Assembly: GCA_965287045.1 (NCBI GenBank)
Contig: OZ336883.1
Location: 41,416,001-41,480,000 of the forward strand
Source of the DNA: Carcharhinus amblyrhynchos
Lineage: Eukaryota
Length of the DNA stretch: 64,000 bases
Direction: 5' to 3'
How positions within the stretch are numbered: the stretch's first letter is position 1; the number at the start of each line of letters is the position of its first letter. A model generated the notes under the pieces. That model was not told where the DNA came from, searched no databases, and saw only the letters and a program-made list of their open reading frames with translations. Positions 19,244 through 31,068 of this stretch are shown one piece after another. Made by a program: the position numbers and the translations under genes.

Positions 19244-19789
19244 GTGCTGATATATGTAGTTTTAACACATAGTTATAAACTATCTATTAGTTTATCTGCT
19301 TTTCAGTTATGAAATTAGGGCCTGTGCATGTCCATTTCCCATATGATTACTGAATTTTCAATCATGTCCTTCCTTGCCTGTTTATTCTTCCTTGTGAATG
19401 TTGTGAAGTTGCAACATAAAGCTTTGGTTGTTTTTCAAATACCATTAATCGCTGATAGAGACCAGAAGCAGGGGTATTGCTTGGCCGCATCTTTGCTAAA
19501 CACTTGTTGAGTCGGGTACAGCTTGTTTGAACTTTATCATATTTTTGGCAGCCTATCAGTTAGAGTTTACAGAGATGGAAAATTATGCCGTATGGCTTTG
19601 GGTGTGGAGGTGGAATGCTATGTCCGTAAGAAGCATGGATAGATGACTTTATGCAGTTACTAAATATTAAGATACAAATAAAGTTACATTATCTTTATAG
19701 AGAAAAGTTTTATTTTTAAGGGTTTTATGTGTGCTTGTGGAGAAACAAAAGCTATTCACAGCAAGAGTAGGTTTCTTCATTAGCTGAAT

Positions 19790-20140
19790 ATTCTGCTATA
19801 TAACAGCAAACAACCCAGTCAGGCTGACTATGTTTCTTTACAATGTTGGCTGTAGATGCTTTATGTGAAGTCAATTTTCGCACACTCAACCTAGTTTAGT
19901 TAAGTGGACTAAGTCAGCATGGGCCCAAATCATAAAACTGCCATAATTTGACATGAAACCCTCATTGGCAATCTCATCTATCTGGCTGTAAAGATGCTTG
20001 CAATTGGGAATAGAAAATTCACACTGGTAGTAGATGCTCCTCTGATGCTGGGGTTAAGTTATGTTGCTAGGGCAGAGTAAGAGCTGTTCTGCTGTGCATT
20101 TGGCCCATGCTATACTACAAAAGTAGACAAAACGCTTCAT
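19790..20140 (+). mobile_element. Ancient SINE resembling LF-SINE
   Basis: Colinear blocks resembling the LF-SINE consensus as I recall it: TGGCTGT..TATGTGAA, AGTGGAC, CCAAATCATAAAACTGCCAT, ACCCTCATTGGCAATCTCA, GGGTTAAG..TTG.TAGGGCA, GCCCATGCTATAC. Confidence 0.55.
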
Positions 20141-20640
20141 TTCTTTCACAATGTACAGCAAATAAATTCAACTCCTTCCTCCCTAACCAAAGTCAGGTTA
20201 CTGATGCATATTAAATTATGCTTTACTTCCTATGTAACTGCAGCTTACTGTCTATTATTGTCTTCTTCAGCCTTTCTGCCACAAGCATGTTTTCCACCCA
20301 CAATGCAGTTTTATACCACCTAGTCCCTGTAGCTGCATACTTATTTGTCCTAACACAGTGTTGCTATAATTCCTCAAACGATTTTTCATTCTGTGCCTGC
20401 ATGGTCACCTGGGGTGTACAACATAATTCCATCCTCTGTCTGCTTTTATCATTCATTGGGATTGGTCAGCTACTACAGTGATCCCTCACCTAACATCACA
20501 GTTGTTTTCTTTAAAAGTGTACCTTAAACAAAACAATGTTGTGAATCAGATTTTCCCATTATACTTCAATATATAAATTGGAGTTGGATTTCACAGCAGG
20601 TTTTTTTCTCCTGAATATGAGTGATTATCTTCTTGATCAG

Positions 20641-21210
20641 CAGCGCGCCTCTCCCTCCGGCCCCCAGCGCGCCTCTCCCTCCGGCCCCCAGCGCGCCTCT
20701 CCCTCCGGCCCCCAGCGCGCCTCTCCCTCCGGCCCCCAGCGCGCCTCTCCCTCCGGCCCCCAGCGCGCCTCTCCCTCCGGCCCCCAGCGCGCCTCTCCCT
20801 CCGGCCCCCAGCGCGCCTCTCCCTCCGGCCCCCAGCGCGCCTCTCCCTCCGGCCCCCAGCGCGCCTCTCCCTCCGGCCCCCAGCGCGCCTCTCCCTCCGG
20901 CCCCCAGCGCGCCTCTCCCTCCGGCCCCCAGCGCGCCTCTCCCTCCGGCCCCCAGCGCGCCTCTCCCTCCGGCCCCCAGCGCGCCTCTCCCTCCGGCCCC
21001 CAGCGCGCCTCTCCCTCCGGCCCCCAGCGCGCCTCTCCCTCCGGCCCCCAGCGCGCCTCTCCCTCCGGCCCCCAGCGCGCCTCTCCCTCCGGCCCCCAGC
21101 GCGCCTCTCCCTCCGGCCCCCAGCGCGCCTCTCCCTCCGGCCCCCAGCGCGCCTCTCCCTCCGGCCCCCAGCGCGCCTCTCCCTCCGGCCCCCAGCGCGC
21201 CTCTCCCTCC
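20641..21210. repeat. Perfect GC-rich minisatellite, 24-bp unit CAGCGCGCCTCTCCCTCCGGCCCC x 23.75
   Basis: 570 bp with no variant units visible. 3 CpG per unit. No stop codon in any frame. Confidence 0.98.
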
Positions 21211-22919
21211 ATTCTTCACACCCCCCTGCCCCCATGATCACCAGCAAGTTGCTGCCCACTCCCAAGTGTGACTTTCCTCAGATTGGGAGGGATCTTGAGC
21301 CTGCATTCTTTGTGTGGGATTGCTGACAGGTGAACTAAACCCTGAGAAAGCGGGAAATTGCAAATCCTGTCAGTGATTTCCGATTTCCCCACTCTTTGCT
21401 GGTGAGGTAATTATGGGTGTGAACCAGATTTTAATAAATTTAACAAAATACAATTATCTAGTTCTCTCTTGCCAAATTTTTCCCCCTCATTAAATATTCA
21501 TACCTCACTGATGTGATGTGAAGTAAGCTTTGTTGTCTGATTGGGTGTCCTTTTAAGATGGCATCGCAATCTCAGTGCAGCTGATTGTGACGGCCCTCAG
21601 AATCCCTGTCCTGCCACAGTGATAGTGTAAACTATGTCCTTTTTTTTCAGACTAAGTGGCTCAAAATGTAGAGAGAAAATTGGTTAGTGGAGCGCCAGTT
21701 TTCTTATCAGAACTGACACTTTGCCATATTCTGATAAGATTGTCCCCATTATGTTGCCTGGATGTGGAAGCAGCATGTCAATAGTACTTTTAGCCATGTG
21801 GAGCAAAATGGCAAGCAAGTTGGTGAATGGGGAAATAAGCAGGGTGGGACTGAGGCAGCAAACAGGGCAGAAACTGGCCTGATCTCAGAAACACCTAAGC
21901 CAACTCTTGAGCTTTCAGCAGCATTGTTTGATTGCTCTATCGATGGCAATGAGATGAACAAATGGAAATCAGGATGTGAATCAGAGAAACAGACCCTAAA
22001 GAATAAACAGCTTTAAAATGAAACATTGTTAAGCAGGGTGACTTAAAGTGAGGACAGTGTATTTATAAGCTGTTGCCTACCTCTTGACTTTAAGCCTATT
22101 GCTGTATTTTTACACTTAATACATACCATCAAGTTCTGAATATGTTAACATATATTATGGACAAAAACCTGCAAACGCAATCTATTCTATTTGGTTATTG
22201 CAAGTATCTATGTGCCTCGGTCTGTGACTGTTAAATTGTCTGACTGCCTTTTGGGCCGAATTCATTGGGGCCAACCATAATATTCTGTACAATGTGGAGC
22301 TTTAACCCTCTTTCAAGGTTTGTCTTCCACTCTGAACACTGTCAGCAACATTTGCAAGTCAGGTTCCCCACACCTGTAAAGAAATTTTGAGCACAGGACT
22401 AAATTATCACCTGGAACTGTCAGTTTACCACAGACGTGAGTTATAATGCTGCTTATATTCAGTAAAATAGAAATATCTTTAAAAAATCCAACAGAGCAAA
22501 ATATATAAATAGCATGCACCATCCTGTTGAGGTTAATGTGTGTTGGTCTGAAATGATGCCAGGCAGTGATATGTACCTCCAGACTGTGATCAGTATCAGT
22601 TCTATGTGACTGTGATAATATTTAATGATAGAAACCTGGAGAATTAATTTTAGATATGCATGCTTTAGAGATTGAAACCTTTTTGTTGATGGTTTGCATT
22701 TCAATTCTGTATTCAACAGTTAAAGGATGGTAATTGTGTGCAATGAACTGGAGTAGGGAATGATTAACAGTAAAACTGAAAACATGGATAATTGTATTTA
22801 ATATTTACTTTATATTAACTCTGGTATATAAGTATGGAAAAGATTGTATTGCCAACAACATTCTGATTCATTGAACCCGTGTTCTGTTTATATTCAGGAG
22901 AGGTCTAAAGAATAACATA

Positions 22920-23330
22920 GGCCTGGATTTTGTGGTAATAATAACAGTGAGGCTATCAACTCTCACTTATTATGGAGTAAATAGTCCACACGTGTACAGT
23001 TAAATGTGAAAACGAGGACATTACTGTCTGATTTTCCCTGGTCTTCCAAAAGAGTTGTTTCAAAGTCCACCACCAAGAGATTTGGCTTTGAAATACGTGC
23101 ATGATGTTGTGGCATCTACACACTGGATGCTCCATAAACATGCCAGAAAATGTTAGGGCTTGTCCATTTTTAAGTGTATGTGAATTTTTAATGGATGGTG
23201 GGCGTAATTATTGCCAAAGCATCTCCGTGGCACTGAAAATCTTGATAAGTGTGGAGTCATATTTTTTCAAATTTTAAATATTGATATAGATTTTTAAAAA
23301 TTTACTTTTTTATAGTTCTATTTTATACCC
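22920..23330 (+). mobile_element. Left part of a dispersed TIR-type element (same family as 43020-45203)
   Basis: Shares CCTGGATTTTGTG, GTGAGGCT, CAGT.AAA..TGAAAA, GTTAGGGCT.GT.CATTT and GGCAC.GAA.AT blocks, in the same order, with 43020-43440. Confidence 0.6.
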
Positions 23331-23679
23331 ATCTTTCTTTTCCTCTTTATTTTTCTTTGTGTACATGATTTTAATTACGGCTTCTGTTCAACACTCACCT
23401 CTGTTCTTACTCATGAATGCTGGTGCCCCATCACCTCCAGTTTAAATTTCTGATTTTCATGTTTGAATTTCTTCATGACCTTGTCTTTTCCTACCTCTTG
23501 TTAACCTCTTCCGGTCTTCAATCCTCTGAAAGTGCACATACTTCTCAGAATCTGACCAGAAAAAAAAGATTGTTGGAGGAAGAAAGAAATACACTTAAAA
23601 AAAGAAACATTATTTATTAACAACTGCATTTCAAATCAACTAATTTGCATGTAATGTGTATTGCTATTCAGACCAGAGT

Positions 23680-24206
23680 GTAAAGTTTTGGTAACCCTAT
23701 TAGCGAAAAGATATTATTAAACTAGAAAGTGTGCAGAAAAGATTTACTAGGATGTTACCAGGACTTGATAGTTCGAGTTATAAGGAGAGGTTGGATAGAC
23801 TGGGACTTTTTTCTCTGGAGTGTAGAAGGCTGAGGGGTGATCTTATAGAGGTCTATAAAATAATGAGGGGCACACATCAGCTGGATAGCCAATATCTTTT
23901 CCCAAAGGTAGGGGAGTCCAAAACTCGAGGACATAGGTTTAAGGTGAGAGGGCAGAGATGCAAAAGGGTCCAGAGAGGCACTTTTTTCACACACAGGGTG
24001 GTGAGTGTCTGGAACAAGCTGCCAGACATAGTAGTAGTAGAAGCGGGTTCAATTTTGTCTTTTAAAAAACATTTACATGGGTTAAGATGGGTATCGAGGG
24101 ATATGGGCCAAATGCAGCAATTAGGATTAGCTTAGGGGTTTAAAAAAAGGGCAGCATGGACAAGTTGGGCCAAAGAACTTGTGTCCACGCTGCAAACCTC
24201 TATGAC
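23680..24206 (+). mobile_element. CR1 LINE 3' end (5'-truncated)
   Basis: ORF 23731-24135 reads QKRFTRMLPGLDSSSYKERLDRLGLFSLECRRLRGDLIEVYKIM, followed by a CR1-type 3' tail. Confidence 0.9.
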
Positions 24207-24400
24207 CTTTTGGACTGCATGGATATATGGTATGCAATGAGAGAATTGATGCTGTTTTGTAGATTTAATTTGCCATAGATTATCATAAAATCATAGATTA
24301 TCATAGAATCTGACGGTGCAGAAGGAGACCATTCGGCCTATCGAATTTGAGCTGACCACAATCTCATTGTGGGATTGTGTCCAAACCTATCCCCAGCGGA

Positions 24401-24950
24401 TCTCTCACCCGTTGATTGCCAGCCATTCTCTCACCCGTTGATCGCCAGCCATTCTCTCACCCGTTGATCGCCAGTCATTCTCTCACCCCTTGATCGCCAG
24501 CCATTCTCTCACCCCTTGATCGCCAGCCATTCTCTCACCCCTTGATCGCCAGCCATTCTCTCACCCCTTGATCGCCAGCCATTCTCTCACCCGTTGATCG
24601 CCAGCCATTCTCTCACCCATTGATCGCCAGCCATTCTCTCACCCGTTGATCGCAGCCATTCTCTCACCCGTTGATCGCCAGCCATTCTCTCACCCGTTGA
24701 TCGCCAGCCATTCTCTCACCCGTTGATCGCCAACCATTCTCTCACCCGTTGATCGCCAGCCATTCTCTCACCCGTTGATCGCCAGCCATTCTCTCACCCG
24801 TTGATCGCCAGCCATTCTCTCACCCGTTGATCGCCAGCCATTCTCTCACCCGTTGATCGCCAGCCATTCTCTCACCCGTTGATCGCCAGCCATTCTCTCA
24901 CCCGTTGATCGCCAGCCATTCTCTCACCCCTTGATCGCCAACCATTCTCT
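24401..24950. repeat. Minisatellite, 26-bp unit ATTCTCTCACCCGTTGATCGCCAGCC x ~21
   Basis: 26-bp period (24425 to 24451) with few variants (CCCG/CCCC/CCCA, one 25-mer). The left side abuts a reverse-oriented SINE/CR1 tail at ~24274-24380. Confidence 0.97.
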
Positions 24951-27900
24951 TCCCATTCCCCATTCTCAGCGATTCTCTCTGATTCCCAGCCATTCTTTCC
25001 CCCACCCCCCACCATGATCTCCAGCGAGTTGCTCCCCAGGTTTCGGTAAAAACGGGGGAGCTCCAGTCTTTTTATCTAGCTTGTGATATCCCTATTACGG
25101 AAAGTGTTTAATGCTAATAAGATGTGTTGTCCAGTACAGACATAAAGATTCAACAAAAGAATGTAAAGGAACCTCAATGTATTTGTAGATTGCCAAGAAA
25201 AGAGATAACACTCAGTGGAAGTAAAATCCTTTACAAGTCAAATGGATTGACTTTAGCATTTCATTTTCCTCCACTGAAAAGTAATGTATGTCTGTACCAA
25301 ATGTGTACATTTTCTGATTACATTATTTATAGCTCTTTACAAAGGTGATCACCTTCTTGAAAACTCCTTATAGAGAATAATGAATATGCAAGTTGTCTAG
25401 ATCCAAAACAAAAGATATTGTAATGTCAAGTTAAAGAGCTAACCAGATGTGTTAACTATAACTTCATAGAAAATTGATATATTTTGGCACATGGAAAAAG
25501 CTATTGTTCTGTGACTTGAGTGATTATTCTAATTGATTTGTGTTCTTCTTTAGTCACTGGGTCAATGAATAATAACTGTTACTTTTAAACAGAGGCTTTT
25601 ATGATGGACACACAAAATGGGACAATAGCCCCATATTCACAGGCAAATAACAGATATTATTGTGTCACTTTAGTGCTAAGTCTACTGCCCATTGCACATT
25701 AAGAATGAGGTTTAGATTAATCTAATTCATTTTAATTTAGGGTCTTGCTCCTCGCATAATGAGGAAACTTCTGTTGCAGCTGACTGAGAATAATTTGAAA
25801 TGAGTTCTTAAAGGTAAAGATGATCTCCTAATGTACTTTGTACCCAATAGCCTAACAATGGAACTAGTATCATAATAAAAGTTAAAAATGGTTTTAAAAT
25901 GCATTTAAATAATTTTTAACTTTAAATTAAGTAACAGAAACATTTCCATATGCTTTACTGTATCATTAGATCAAACTTTCCAATTTGATATGAATTACCT
26001 ATGTTTTAATTTGACCTGTAAGTTTAATTATTTACAGCTGTTAAGGGGATGTTCAACATGTCTGCCAAAACCCTGCTAACTGTATGATTAAAAATAGATT
26101 CTGTATTGGCCACAACTTTAAAAAAAATTGGGGTTAACATGGGTGAACATATGTGTGTATACATATTCATTTTTTTCAAGGCTAGTTGTATTCTTTTTTC
26201 GTTTACTTTCCAAAATGTCTTTATCTGTTGCACCACATAGGACATTTTTAAATGTTTATGTAAAGGATCGATTTTTAGTGCAAATCAACACAAAAGAGGG
26301 GAACAAAGTTTGGTAAATACTTTTAAAGAAACTTTTTTTTAACCACTTGCTAGTAATAAAAATCTCTGTAATGTACATGTCTAAAATTTTATTTTTGGGC
26401 AGGAAGTAAACAAAGCAGAGAATCATTAATTATCCGTCTCGGCACTTACTATGTCTACTAAAGTAGGGATTGTGCAGATTCTACTCTGCTTCTCGTTTCA
26501 CTCGCAGTGTCAGTGTTGGGCAAGGTGACTTAAAAGGGGTCTGTAGTCCAGTAGCAATGATCGTTAAATAGGTATGACACAGAAAACCCAATGTGATACC
26601 TAGATAGCATTCTCTAGATGATCAATCCTTAGGAATTGCGAGTGAATAGCGCAAAATAACATTGTTACTTTAAAAAAAATCTGTTTAAATGAGGTCGCAT
26701 TAGATACTTTTGAAATGCACGTCATTGTCCCATCCCTTGGAGGGGCGGGTAGTGGTCGAATGGTTTTAGATGAATGATATTTCTGAAATATCTCACCTCA
26801 AAAGCTCAGCTACATAATGACTTCTGTGTCATAACTCTGCCCCATTTTCAGTTCTGTATAAATTATAATTCTGCATCGAGAATTGCAAAGTGTGTTTAAA
26901 AATCGTAGGCACATGTTAATGGAAACTGATAATGTGTTGATAAATCACTAAATATTCTGTCGAGACAAGACCCTTTAAGATGGGCTTTCCATTTATGTGA
27001 TATTTAAGATCCGAGAAACATGCTTATGTTTTTTTAAATTCAGAATGGAGAACAAACAATTCTCATTAGTCATTTTGAATTAATGTAGACCTGTATGATT
27101 ATGGCAAATATTTAAATTGTGCTTTTCAGTGAAGGGTCCGAATTCAGTGTCCGAATTTCAATTGTACAACTAAGATGCTCAAATACTGAACCGTTATAAC
27201 ATTTTTAAAAACGTTGTCGATTTGTTAGTTTTAGCAGTAGGTACGTATTATGAAAAAAAATTGAAGTTGTATTTACACTGGTTAAAATAGCGAGCTTTAC
27301 GAGGAGGGGAATGAGTGGGTGCTACACGGATCATTTCTTTTATGTGGAATCGGGTGGAGAAGGGATGTATTGTGATTCAAGCTCGATTAGTGAAGCGCTA
27401 AAGAAATTAATTTTAGTATCGGAATTATTTTAAATGAAAAAGTTGAAAACAATCTATAACATAAGTAGTGAATGTTCGTAAAGTATGGATTTGTTTCCTT
27501 GTTCATTGAATTGAAATGAGGGGAAATCAAATACAAGTTTTAAGATTTTTTTCCCACTTGGCTTTGTTTTTGTTCATTTTTATATTCCTATTTAATAGCC
27601 ATTACAAGTTGAGTTAAATTTTACATTTATTAAACAGTAACCAAACGGTTATGTTTATTTCAAAGTGCTGACGTAGCCTTCGAAGTTGATGGCCCACATC
27701 CATATTAATGATTAAACCATACTGGAAAAACAAGCAGCGCCTCCCTCACCTCGGGGCACGCACCATCGGGCAACTACTTTCATAAAAAGTAAATAGAAGC
27801 ATTTATTGGGAGAGAGCTTATCGTTTTAGATTGCCGTTTTGCACATAGCAAATTGCACAACAGGAAACTGACAGGGGGTTAGATGTGGGTGGATGTTGCA

Positions 27901-28779: not shown

Positions 28780-29085
28780 TCAATGACTTGGTGTATCGGA
28801 CTGAGTCACGTTCAGAGTAATTGGGCTGAGAGCCCCATGCTGGCTGGGAAGGCTACGGCTGCGCACTGGCAGCGGGGCTGGGGAAGTCGCGTCTGCGCAC
28901 TGGCGGCGGAGCCGGGGAAGCTGCACTTGCGCACTGGCGGTCTGCAGCGCGGCGCTGACGTCACGCGGCGCTCGGAGAAGCTGGGTGGCGCGAGCGGGAG
29001 GTGAGGAGAAAGCGGAGAGCGGAGCAGGAGAAAGGCGAGCGAGGCAGCCCGGGCCCAGCCACTCAACCCCCAACGCCTTCGCACC
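28780..29085 (+). promoter_or_regulatory. CpG-island promoter and 5' UTR of IRF2BPL
   Basis: Sharp rise in GC and CpG. AP-1 TGAGTCA 28802-28808; TGCGCACTGGC at 28860, 28894 and 28928; full CRE TGACGTCA 28956-28963; Kozak-like GCACCATG. Confidence 0.8.
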
Positions 29086-31068
29086 ATGTCCGCTGCACAG
29101 GTCTCTTCGTCCCGGAGACAGTCGTGTTATCTCTGCGATCTGCCCCGCATGCCGTGGGCCATGATCTGGGATTTTACCGAACCTGTGTGCCGGGGTTGCG
29201 TCAACTACGAAGGGGCCGATCGCATCGAGTTTGTTATCGAGACGGCGCGGCAACTGAAGCGGGCTCATGGCTTCCAGGAGGGCCGCTCTCCGGGGCCGCC
29301 CCCTGTCAAAGTGCAGTCCTTGGGAGGCAGCAAGGAGGCGACTCAGCAGCTCAACCACGTCGACGGCTCGTCCAAGGCGCCACAGCCGCCTCTCGATCGC
29401 TACTCCCTGAGCGAGAGACCGCGCTTCGAGTATCCGAGCCTCGCCCACGCTGGCAGGCTTCCCAATGGCCTGAACGGACCCAATGGATTCCCCAAACCCG
29501 AGGACATACCGCCGGAACTGAACCGGCAGAGTCCCAACTCATCGCGGAGAAATCACGGCATCGTGCCCCCGGGCCCGGTCACTGTGCCGCCCAACCTGCT
29601 GCCTCAGACCACCTTAAACGGTCCGTCCGCAGGAACCTTGGCCCCGCACGGGCTGCTCGGCCGGCCGTCACCTTCCAGCAGCCTGGCTGGCACATCAGTG
29701 ACGGTCAGCAGCCAGGTGCTGAGCGATGTAAACAAGCGGCCGGGCTCGGTGTCCAGCAGCGACCAGGAGCGGGAGCTGAAGGAGAAGCAGCGGAACGCCG
29801 AGACCCTGGCCGAGCTGGGTGAGAGCCTGAGGAACCGCTCGGAGGACTGGGCCAACAAGCCCAAAATCGTGCGGGAGACGCTTCTCACCCTGTCCAACTG
29901 CAACCCCTTCGATGTGCGCTTCAAGAAGGATCACTCTCTGCTGGGCCGGGTCTTCGCTTTCGACGCCGTTTCCAAGCCCGGCATGGACTTCGAGCTGAAG
30001 ATCTTCATCGAGTACCCGAGCGGCTCGGCCAATGTCTTCTCCAGCGCCTCCGGGGTGGCCAAGCAGATGTACCAGGACTGTATGAAGGATTTCAGCAGAG
30101 GCCTATCGTCAGGCTTCAAGTACTTAGAGTACGAGAAGAAACATGGTTCGGGGGACTGGCGCCTCCTGGGTGACCTCCTGCCCGAGTCAGTGCGTTTCTT
30201 CAAGGAGGTGGTGGGGGCCGACATGCTGCCGCAGCCCCACATCGACGCCAATTGCCCCATCTTACCCACTGCCCTGTGCAACATGCCGCGCCCCCCGCCC
30301 AACAGCTCCAGAACTGGGATGCGCAAGCGGAAAGCGTCCCCCGAGCCCGACTCGGACGCGGGCAGCGTGAAGCTGGAAGAGCGGCAGCAGCAATGGCTCT
30401 CTAACCAGAACGAAGCCTTAAAGCTCACTATGGCGGTATCCGGCAGCTTCGGGGCAGGCGGCGTGCCGCACGGTGGTTCCGCTCTACCACCCAACCGGAC
30501 CACCCCCCCCGAGTGCAGCACCCAGAATGGACAGTCCCCCATGGCCGCCCTCATGTCCGTGGCTGACACCCTCGGGAATGCCCACTCGCCAAAGGACAGC
30601 AGCAATTCCGTACATTCGACCACGAGTACCAGCACCAGGAGGAACAGCAACAGTCCGGTGTCCCCGGCCTCAGGGGGCGGCCAGCGCCGCATGGTGTCCA
30701 GGAACGGGGATGCTGCTCTGTCCGTGGCCCCTCCTAACAACCATCCCAATCCCAGCATAGACCCCGTTCATCCCCCAAACATTCCAGACTCACCGATGGC
30801 CAACAACGGGCCCCTGTGCTGCACCATTTGTCATGAACGTTTGGAGGATACTCACTTTGTGCAATGTCCATCAGTGCCCAATCATAAATTCTGTTTCCCA
30901 TGCTCTCGGGAGAGCATCAAGGCTCAGGGGGCGAATGGAGAAGTTTATTGCCCCAGTGGAGAAAAATGCCCTTTAGTAGGTTCAAATGTCCCTTGGGCAT
31001 TCATGCAAGGAGAGATTGCTACAATCTTAGCAGGGGACGTAAAGGTCAAAAAAGAAAGAGACCCATAA
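29086..31068 (+). CDS. IRF2BPL: Interferon regulatory factor 2-binding protein-like (EAP1): intronless, 660 aa, N-terminal C4 zinc finger and C-terminal C3HC4 RING
   Basis: Starts [30 protein letters not shown], the IRF2BPL N-terminus. Contains the central [21 protein letters not shown]...[22 protein letters not shown] domain, [12 protein letters not shown] and [33 protein letters not shown]...[11 protein letters not shown]. Single uninterrupted ORF. Confidence 0.97.

Follow-up and report, generated by a model that had tools for sequence, protein, structure and literature searches.

Our analysis points to a single source for the two minisatellites of the window (the whole stretch of 64,000 nucleotides analysed, positions 41,416,001 to 41,480,000 of contig OZ336883.1 of Carcharhinus amblyrhynchos). 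Array 1 is likely the expanded unit of an internal module of a Tigger/pogo-type MITE, and array 2 likely arose from a piece of this module that was copied 3.8 kb downstream in double-strand-break repair (probability of this reading roughly 0.7). The arrays and the sequences that close them are located as follows.

20641 to 21210, forward strand: array 1, 24 bp × 23.8, matches 100%
21211 to 21281, forward strand: tail 1 and last module unit, with a C-rich spacer and the terminal unit at 21232-21258
24389 to 24950, forward strand: array 2, 26 bp × 21.2, 97%, the repeat running over 24401-24950; no host ends
24951 to 25038, forward strand: worn units and tail 2, with the terminal unit at 25012-25038

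The 23 full units of array 1 are identical, with a GC content of 83% and a CpG observed/expected ratio of 0.96. The units of array 1 and array 2 are each confined to a single locus, no other occurrence being found in the genome. The first-pass annotation had noticed that both arrays run into a common flanking motif, and this was confirmed: the terminal units are identical at 24 of 27 positions and lie 3780 bp apart, and a longer alignment of 50-51 columns retains about 80% identity (E about 1e-5 against the window). No third stretch of the window matched the tails without five edits. In the 2.9-Gb genome the tail was found at these two sites only, both at 0 and at up to 2 mismatches, and its reversed control gave no site; the search mode allowing two mismatches was validated by the recovery of a known 2-mismatch site. 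A 17-mer tail query returned one extra site, beside a SINE tail and with no adjoining minisatellite, which was dismissed as a chance match. The tail is thus not the dispersed family motif it had been proposed to be, and occurrence at these two sites only is the very outcome that the proposal had named against itself.

The elements surrounding array 1, together with a further element to which the arrays had been related, are listed below.

20476 to 22059: host MITE of array 1, old, non-autonomous, Tigger/pogo-type, TA-flanked
20476 to 20495, forward strand: host left TIR, matching the 3' end of a transposase-bearing element on C23
20586 to 21281, forward strand: internal module of 22-23-bp proto-units, expanded here, at the same position as worn units in other copies
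22040 to 22059, reverse strand: host right TIR, worn, placed by comparison with other copies
21285 to 21747: nested Harbinger-like MITE, bounded by an ATT duplication (21282-21284 and 21748-21750) and without relation to the arrays
1447 to 2261: separate high-copy Harbinger-like MITE, with TCA on both sides and a distinct internal repeat of 42-45 bp; the arrays do not stem from it

As judged from sequence comparison, the host of array 1 is classified as a Tigger/pogo-type element with a TA duplication, not a Harbinger. TA is present at both host ends (20474-20475 and 22060-22061), and host profiles built from other copies matched 20475-20655 (E 6.6e-27), 21740-21889 (E 6.6e-18) and 21873-22057 (E 1.2e-27). 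Furthermore, one copy (L029) aligns with both host parts while the insert is absent. The TIRs of the family are about 20 bp long and begin with CAG; they are clear in the C23 element and in copy L118 and worn at the right end in the window, worn TIRs being recognised solely through the comparison of copies. The C23 element, also flanked by TA, is 3.3 kb long with ends matching the host, and its ORF of 534 aa contains CENP-B_N, HTH_Tnp_Tc5 and DDE_1 domains, with Ala at the position that we take to be the third Asp of the catalytic triad. At this locus the left-end profile gave E 7.4e-28 (the locus was in the training set of that profile) and the right-end profile E 5e-4. Of 111 DDE_1 matches, 30 loci were examined, and one of these had both host-type ends. 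TA begins 17 of the 27 aligned left ends. The family is a low-copy one, inactive for a long time, with left ends 74-88% identical to their own majority. In its interior the 22-23-bp module is accompanied by a degenerate G-rich repeat, no V-SINE interior being seen in the printed copies, and its left end may resemble MER6. A scan of 19500-26000 for inverted repeats that could serve as enclosing TIRs listed 263 pairs, of which the 25 longest included no usable one.

The first-pass annotation had assigned both arrays, as independent insertions, to one Harbinger-like family that includes the element at 1447-2261, with the host of array 1 closed by a TIR-like end at about 21747. That end exists, but as part of the 3-bp-flanked MITE, which begins only at 21285, to the right of the tail; it is therefore not the closing end of the array's host. 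Copies of the nested MITE elsewhere have both ends in common, and none extends to the tail. Both Harbinger-like MITEs in the window have a 3-bp duplication and GGG...CCC-type ends, and a clean 3-bp duplication was seen by eye in one of six other two-ended copies. The degenerate repeat reported for the element at 1447-2261 is real (2.6 copies by TRF at 1790-1901, and a fourth worn copy near 1741) and does expand, reaching 25-38 copies of 92-93% at three of 30 loci, and the tails resemble its 43-bp unit at a low local score. Its kinship with the arrays did not hold up: a similarity between the 43-bp and 22-bp units as high or higher was obtained with 116 of 1000 shuffles, so a common origin of the units is not supported. 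With a TA-flanked Tigger-type element around array 1, the 21747 end closing a nested MITE and a tail that is not dispersed, a Harbinger host for array 1 is refuted, and a Harbinger-like origin of both arrays retains next to no probability.

What stood of the proposal is its core, a non-autonomous transposon whose internal proto-repeat expands into copy-specific minisatellites. Most module copies contain about 1-8 worn 22-23-bp units at the position of array 1. The end of the module in copy L102 is one unit near-identical to the unit of array 1, and the tail 1 region (21211-21281) gives a 54-nt alignment with two module units of copy L034. The skeleton common to the units of both arrays is likewise real and derives from this module: both units are 3-5 mismatches from the module consensus, the array 2 unit being 4 from the 22-nt consensus. 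C-rich low-complexity sequence does inflate short matches, and two independent arrays grown from such sequence could share a tail by chance; this is highly improbable in view of the closeness of both units to the module, the E value of the tails in the window, and the lack of a third site in the genome or of any in the reversed control.

Expanded module copies number at least three (array 1, C17 and C14), with different units and 23.8, 17.5 and 92.5 copies, respectively. At C17:44.47 Mb the host left end (E 3.6e-25) is directly followed by 23 bp × 17.5 (99%), and at C14:39.94 Mb a split host left end is followed by 22 bp × 92.5 (84%); both lack the part right of the module. The exact left-TIR pattern and one DNA query, which retrieved two copies each, were too strict because the family is so old. 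Counts given here are those of the copies found, the catalogue being incomplete and compiled without a whole-genome profile search. Listed matches without loci (2, 6, 4 and 10 rows across four listings) were left out. Four candidate copies (L130, L131, L133 and L135) were rejected and excluded from all counts, and a 30-bp satellite on C33, which made up 11 of the 20 matches of one search, was set aside as unrelated, its flanks having no host ends.

Whether the module seeds arrays more often than expected was addressed with small counts throughout. Among 71 left ends sampled regardless of arrays, an array stood at the module in two of the 13 module-bearing copies (the window and C17) and in none of the 58 copies without a module. 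When the window was excluded, the comparison became 1/12 vs 0/58 (Fisher P = 0.17), which counts against seeding. By a hand tally, two of 29 non-window module copies were expanded, one of them, C14:39.94 Mb, having been found via the unit pattern, which favours arrays. Against a background of 3 arrays in 400 kb this gives P = 0.0005-0.002, or 0.016 using the upper bound of the background rate; if 60 copies are assumed together with that upper bound, P rises to 0.06, again counting against seeding.

The origin of array 2 has to be sought in its junctions, whose features are as follows.

23678 to 24206, forward strand: high-copy fragment, putatively LINE-like
24274 to 24394, reverse strand: SINE-like repeat, a 3' piece with a short-repeat tail, the rest of the SINE missing
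24354 to 24381: fold-back inserted in the SINE piece, formed by 12-13 nt copied in inverse orientation and lying 8 nt short of the junction
24389 to 24395, forward strand: microhomology at the left junction, 6-7 nt common to the SINE and the module unit
25031 to 25061: imperfect hairpin across the right junction, -10.4 kcal/mol

Since the tail is present at only two genome sites, a local copy explains array 2 better than the second family insertion that had been suggested. The tails match each other at 24/27 (score 49), whereas 26 other module regions reach at best 20-21/27 (score 29-30); a TG at unit positions 16-17 is common to both tails and missing from all 43 other units. The module profile alone matched array 2 weakly (E 0.11), and short local scores fail to separate the 22-bp from the 43-bp family (20-27 vs 21-25), both of which count against this reading. 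A second orphan piece of the host family exists on C13, 99 bp long and 4.0 kb from its parent copy; the pair is 86% identical, vs about 75% among the left ends of ordinary copies. The absence of host ends, together with a microhomology junction in a SINE beside a fold-back, makes a repair-mediated local copy with its own later expansion the most likely origin of array 2.

The fold-back (-6.5 kcal/mol, a value reached by 1.4% of 1564 windows) is absent from 32 other printed SINE copies. Only one of 1564 windows is as low as the hairpin at the right junction, which shows three differences in organism G; the hairpin windows at both junctions were picked after being seen. The repair signature is less clear at the right junction than at the left.

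A local hop of the whole Tigger MITE, with both ends deleted later, would equally account for the common derived tail and the short distance, and the truncated C17 and C14 copies demonstrate that ends around arrays do get lost. However, left, middle and right host profiles detected neither end in the surroundings of array 2, two deletions would have had to halt exactly at the module, and the left junction carries the microhomology and the fold-back; we regard such a hop as unlikely. Slightly less plausible still is capture of the module piece during SINE integration, in which a 5'-truncated cDNA switched template to nearby DNA. The module copy does directly adjoin the SINE piece where that piece is truncated at 5', and to the right nothing more of the SINE was found (25039-27000 gave no repeat match against 1.17 Mb of fetched loci). 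Against capture, no target duplication was seen, and the contig of organism D has the SINE 3' piece up to 24356 followed by other sequence, which suggests that the SINE was present without the capture. The departure of this contig from the window sequence at 24356, after which 4466 nt are unlike, fits either a deletion in the window lineage or a loss in organism D. Alignments of organisms B, D and E are nearly empty over 24951-25880; such holes prove nothing.

Under the repair reading, the course of events would be the following. After insertion, the module units of each copy would have diverged, and in a small number of copies slippage or unequal exchange would have multiplied one unit and held its repeats uniform; this combination of drift and private amplification would give each copy its own unit. 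A break in or beside the SINE may have been mended by strand invasion into the module close by, the 6-7 nt of microhomology serving as primer and the remainder of the SINE being lost; the copied units would then have expanded independently as array 2. More tentatively, and at somewhat less than even odds, the module may be a portable minisatellite seed, of which about one in ten copies amplified a private unit long after the transposon died, a property kept after repair copying; dead modules and repair duplication would then form a steady source of orphan GC-rich VNTRs, each specific to its locus, in this genome, and the 43-bp family may behave alike.

Both MITE-born tandem repeats and repair-mediated duplications are already published processes. 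According to the portions of the reviews available, a Tc1/mariner MITE of Xenopus tropicalis, miDNA4, carries a satellite monomer in its interior (PMC9659126, PMC12628747). It is similar in being non-autonomous, in having an internal unit that is single or present in varying numbers, and in forming long homogeneous arrays that may lose the element ends; the shark unit is instead a 22-26-bp minisatellite in a low-copy, long-dead family, with a different unit, at one locus only, in each expanded copy. Tandem repeats from internal MITE sequence are likewise described, in the accessible parts, for Xstir from the Xmix MITE (Xenopus) and for the tandem-repeat MITE DTC84 of the clam Donax (PMC12628747, PMC9659126, PMC3879986), which spread one repeat family genome-wide, whereas the shark arrays are locus-specific and appear to have expanded after transposition ceased. 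One feature of MITE-borne repeats, a unit carried within the element from once to many times, is present here, and another, one monomer family forming many arrays or a free satellite, is not, the units of arrays 1 and 2 having one locus each. MER6, as far as the available text describes it, is a Tc1/Mariner MITE with 24-bp TIRs and a TA duplication (PMC6887750); the shark host shares the TA duplication, TIRs of similar kind (about 20 bp) and a variable captured interior, and differs in what that interior contains, the module and the G-rich repeat in place of a V-SINE in the printed copies.

Repair-mediated duplications, in the part of the report available, have donors within 5 kb, microhomology of 2-9 nt and filler at the junction, with deletions of merely 1-15 nt that leave both halves of the interrupted element (PMC2671141). 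The seed of array 2 agrees in its short copied tract, in its donor 3.8 kb away at one place only, and in the microhomology and filler at the left junction. It differs in that the other half of the SINE is gone, that no empty site was seen, and that the copied tract later grew into an array of its own. In the literature covered, which was limited in scope and comprised few subscription papers, no shark case was found.

Minisatellites seldom preserve the state from which they started, so their birth is hard to observe. In this family some 30 paralogous copies still show the unexpanded module in a variety of forms; three copies bear expansions, each of a different unit, and outside the element a fourth array apparently arose from a repair copy. 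Together they form a natural experiment for comparing the unit sequences and contexts that set off expansion. The case also illustrates how two unlike arrays with a common edge can have a single origin.

Downstream of both arrays lies one gene.

29086 to 31068, forward strand: IRF2BP-family gene, 660 aa, with IRF-2BP zinc-finger, middle and RING domains

This ORF, a candidate for the IRF2BPL named in the first-pass annotation, places the arrays 4.0-8.4 kb upstream, in agreement with the 4-8 kb first reported. The gene is a neighbour only, no function of the arrays toward it or effect on it being shown here. The repeat-spanning ORFs over array 1 are by-products of the 24-bp unit.

The two minisatellites upstream of the IRF2BP-family ORF (29086-31068, plus strand) were delimited with TRF in the window (C14:41416001-41480000) as array 1 (20641-21210, 24 bp x 23.8, 100%) and array 2 (24401-24950, 26 bp x 21.2, 97%). 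Neither unit occurs elsewhere in the genome, and the first-pass annotation was therefore correct in calling the arrays copy-specific. Each array is followed by a tail (tail 1, 21232-21258; tail 2, 25012-25038); the tails are identical at 24/27 positions and can be aligned over ~50 nt with 80% identity (E about 1e-5). The same annotation had expected the tail to be a dispersed genome-wide motif, but the search it proposed, covering 2.92 Gb, returned the two window sites and no others, whether 0 or 2 mismatches were allowed, and 0 sites in the reversed control. The mismatch mode was validated by its recovery of a 2-mismatch site previously known from BLAST. The tail is therefore a local pair, rather than a motif dispersed through the genome.

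The end at 21747, previously read as the terminus of a Harbinger-like host of array 1, belongs to a different element, nested in the true host. With 21205-21760 as query, 42 matches were obtained from scoring 40 of 135 candidates, and among the matches listed the first 171 bases of the query, tail included, were covered by the window's own match alone. Homology in the loci examined begins near 21283 and stops near 21748, and other copies show like ends. The left flank of array 1 comes from another family, copies of which start with TA and a CAG-starting TIR; 21745-22055 was also matched by three of the seven copies first examined, and profiles from other copies match the window at 20475-20655, 21740-21889 and 21873-22057. 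The two elements are:

20476-22059, host MITE of array 1, TA on each side
21285-21747, nested Harbinger-like MITE, ATT on each side

Both host-family ends were present in one of 30 DDE_1 loci examined (of 111 matches), on contig C23. This element is 3.3 kb long, flanked by TA and bounded by TIRs of about 20 bp; its 534-aa ORF encodes CENP-B_N, HTH_Tnp_Tc5 and DDE_1 domains. Since the host shares the ends of this element, it is a Tigger/pogo derivative, and the Harbinger identity given to it does not hold. Left ends of the host family match their majority at 74-88%, so the family is old. The C23 element (L208:2721-6019; C23 about 38868220-38871519) retains both TIRs, and its ORF is unbroken despite a family divergence of about 15%. 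At the residue taken for the third catalytic Asp the ORF has Ala; it is a candidate domesticated TIGD-like gene. A 30 bp x 24.6 array (94%) lies at L017:2380-3117, about 760 bp past a copy of the nested-MITE family.

One host subfamily carries worn 22-23-bp units (the module) about 110 bp from its left end, for which TRF reports 4.0 copies at 77% in copy L076, 2.8 copies at 73% in L070 and 2.5-8 copies at 65-83% in five further copies. Array 1 begins at the module's position in the host. Tail 1 and the next unit form a 54-nt alignment to the two units of copy L034, in whose post-module part the window sequence resumes beyond the nested MITE, and the module of L102 terminates in a unit nearly identical to that of array 1. 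The unit skeleton that the annotation saw in both arrays is real and was traced to this module, with 3-5 mismatches to its 22-nt consensus (array 2 unit, 4; tail 2, 3; tail 1, 5). These comparisons are direct evidence that the array units derive from the module, and we put the probability that array 1 arose from this host and its module at about 0.92. A second, G-rich degenerate repeat, also of variable length, lies right of the module in L076 and L104 (11-39-bp periods, 59-76% matches). A 5-kb 30-bp satellite at about 1.788-1.793 Mb of C33 (L107-L117), with a unit like the pre-module sequence, was rejected as it is without element flanks.

The element at 1447-2261, placed by the annotation in the family of the arrays' host, belongs to a different, very abundant Harbinger-like family (7454 candidates, 40 of them scored), with a TCA duplication and a 42-45-bp module. 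The likeness of its 43-bp unit to the 22-bp unit was not significant (116/1000 shuffles scored as high). The tails give overlapping short local scores with the two families and were therefore assigned by position in the host, not by score. The Harbinger-like family of 1447-2261 is a second one seeding minisatellites: its 42-44-bp internal unit reaches 25-38 copies at 92-93% in 3/30 loci (L052, L059, L061), a biased sample, as the query contained the unit.

Array 2 lies outside any recognizable host. No host ends were found near it by profile search (best match, the module itself, E 0.11); its right flank is single-copy and, over 2 kb, had no repeat match against 1.17 Mb of loci. On its left is a 3' piece of a SINE-like repeat (minus strand). 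Relative to 32 other copies, this piece has gained an insert, a 12-13-nt inverted copy, after which it runs into the module across 6-7 letters common to both. A second hairpin straddles the right junction. Both structures are unusual, the left fold-back being equalled by 1.4% of 1564 windows and the right hairpin by 1/1564, though both were picked after being seen. Tail matches tail at 24/27 (score 49), against a best of 20-21/27 (score 29-30) for 26 other module regions of 24 copies, and the TG common to both tails occurs in 0/43 other distinct units. At 21239-21240 the window has CA and organisms G and D have TG; CG may be ancestral there, which would bring tail 1 nearer to the array 2 unit. 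Array 2 is thus very likely a local copy, and its seed was probably copied by break repair specifically.

Repair-mediated duplication is established in vertebrates. As described in PMC2671141, it involves a donor under 5 kb away, a short tract, 2-9 nt of microhomology and filler, all of which the anatomy of array 2 matches; it departs from that description in that the remainder of the interrupted SINE is gone. PMC2943611 describes templated inserts at end-joining junctions. On C13 a 99-bp TIR-less piece of the Tigger MITE (L214:1501-1595, about 36.858 Mb) matches a full copy at a distance of 4.0 kb with 86% identity, and is likely a second repair-mediated local duplication.

Unit-pattern searches of the genome yielded two extra arrays. 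One, on C17, is 23 bp x 17.5 (99%) and comes directly after the host left end (E 3.6e-25); an array-free left-end query also recovered this copy. The other, at 39.94 Mb of C14, is 22 bp x 92.5 (84%) and comes after a left end that an insert has split. A fixed rule applied to 71 distinct left ends, a few of which may be right ends, gave 13 module-bearing ones. Arrays located at the module, with at least 10 copies at at least 80%, were present in 2/13 (window, C17) versus 0/58 others, or 1/12 versus 0/58 with the window excluded (P = 0.17). By hand tally, 2/29 module copies without the window are expanded. The background, taken from forty 10-kb stretches chosen evenly, is 3 arrays of this kind in 400 kb. 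Against it, P = 0.0005-0.002 for the tally, rising to 0.016 when the background is set to its upper Poisson bound and to 0.06 when 60 copies are assumed as well. Expansion is probably enriched in module copies, with few events behind it, and in all likelihood has occurred repeatedly above background.

PMC9659126 and PMC12628747 review MITEs from which tandem repeats arise, a Tc1/mariner MITE of Xenopus tropicalis among them. The literature searched, with most subscription papers outside its scope, held no shark or Tigger-minisatellite case. Both processes, MITE-derived tandem repeats and repair-mediated duplication, are already known; the case here adds a two-step history.

Contigs of the related organisms F, A, G and D (about 1-5% other letters) end 10-31 nt left of 21205, which would be expected with a tandem array at the array 1 site in these organisms too. 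In organism G a single contig holds the array 2 unit, tail 2 and flank (23 differences in 964), with three differences in the right-junction hairpin; short contigs of the unit were found in B and E. The contig of D departs from the window at 24356, exactly at the fold-back start, and the 4466 nt that follow did not match 24915-25880; D therefore either is without the event or has lost the region. The arrays' CpG o/e is about 1 versus 0.33. That the arrays are common to several species yet 97-100% homogeneous and CpG-rich suggests continuing turnover. A degenerate 34-bp GC-rich repeat lies at 28842-28940, immediately upstream of the IRF2BP-family ORF.
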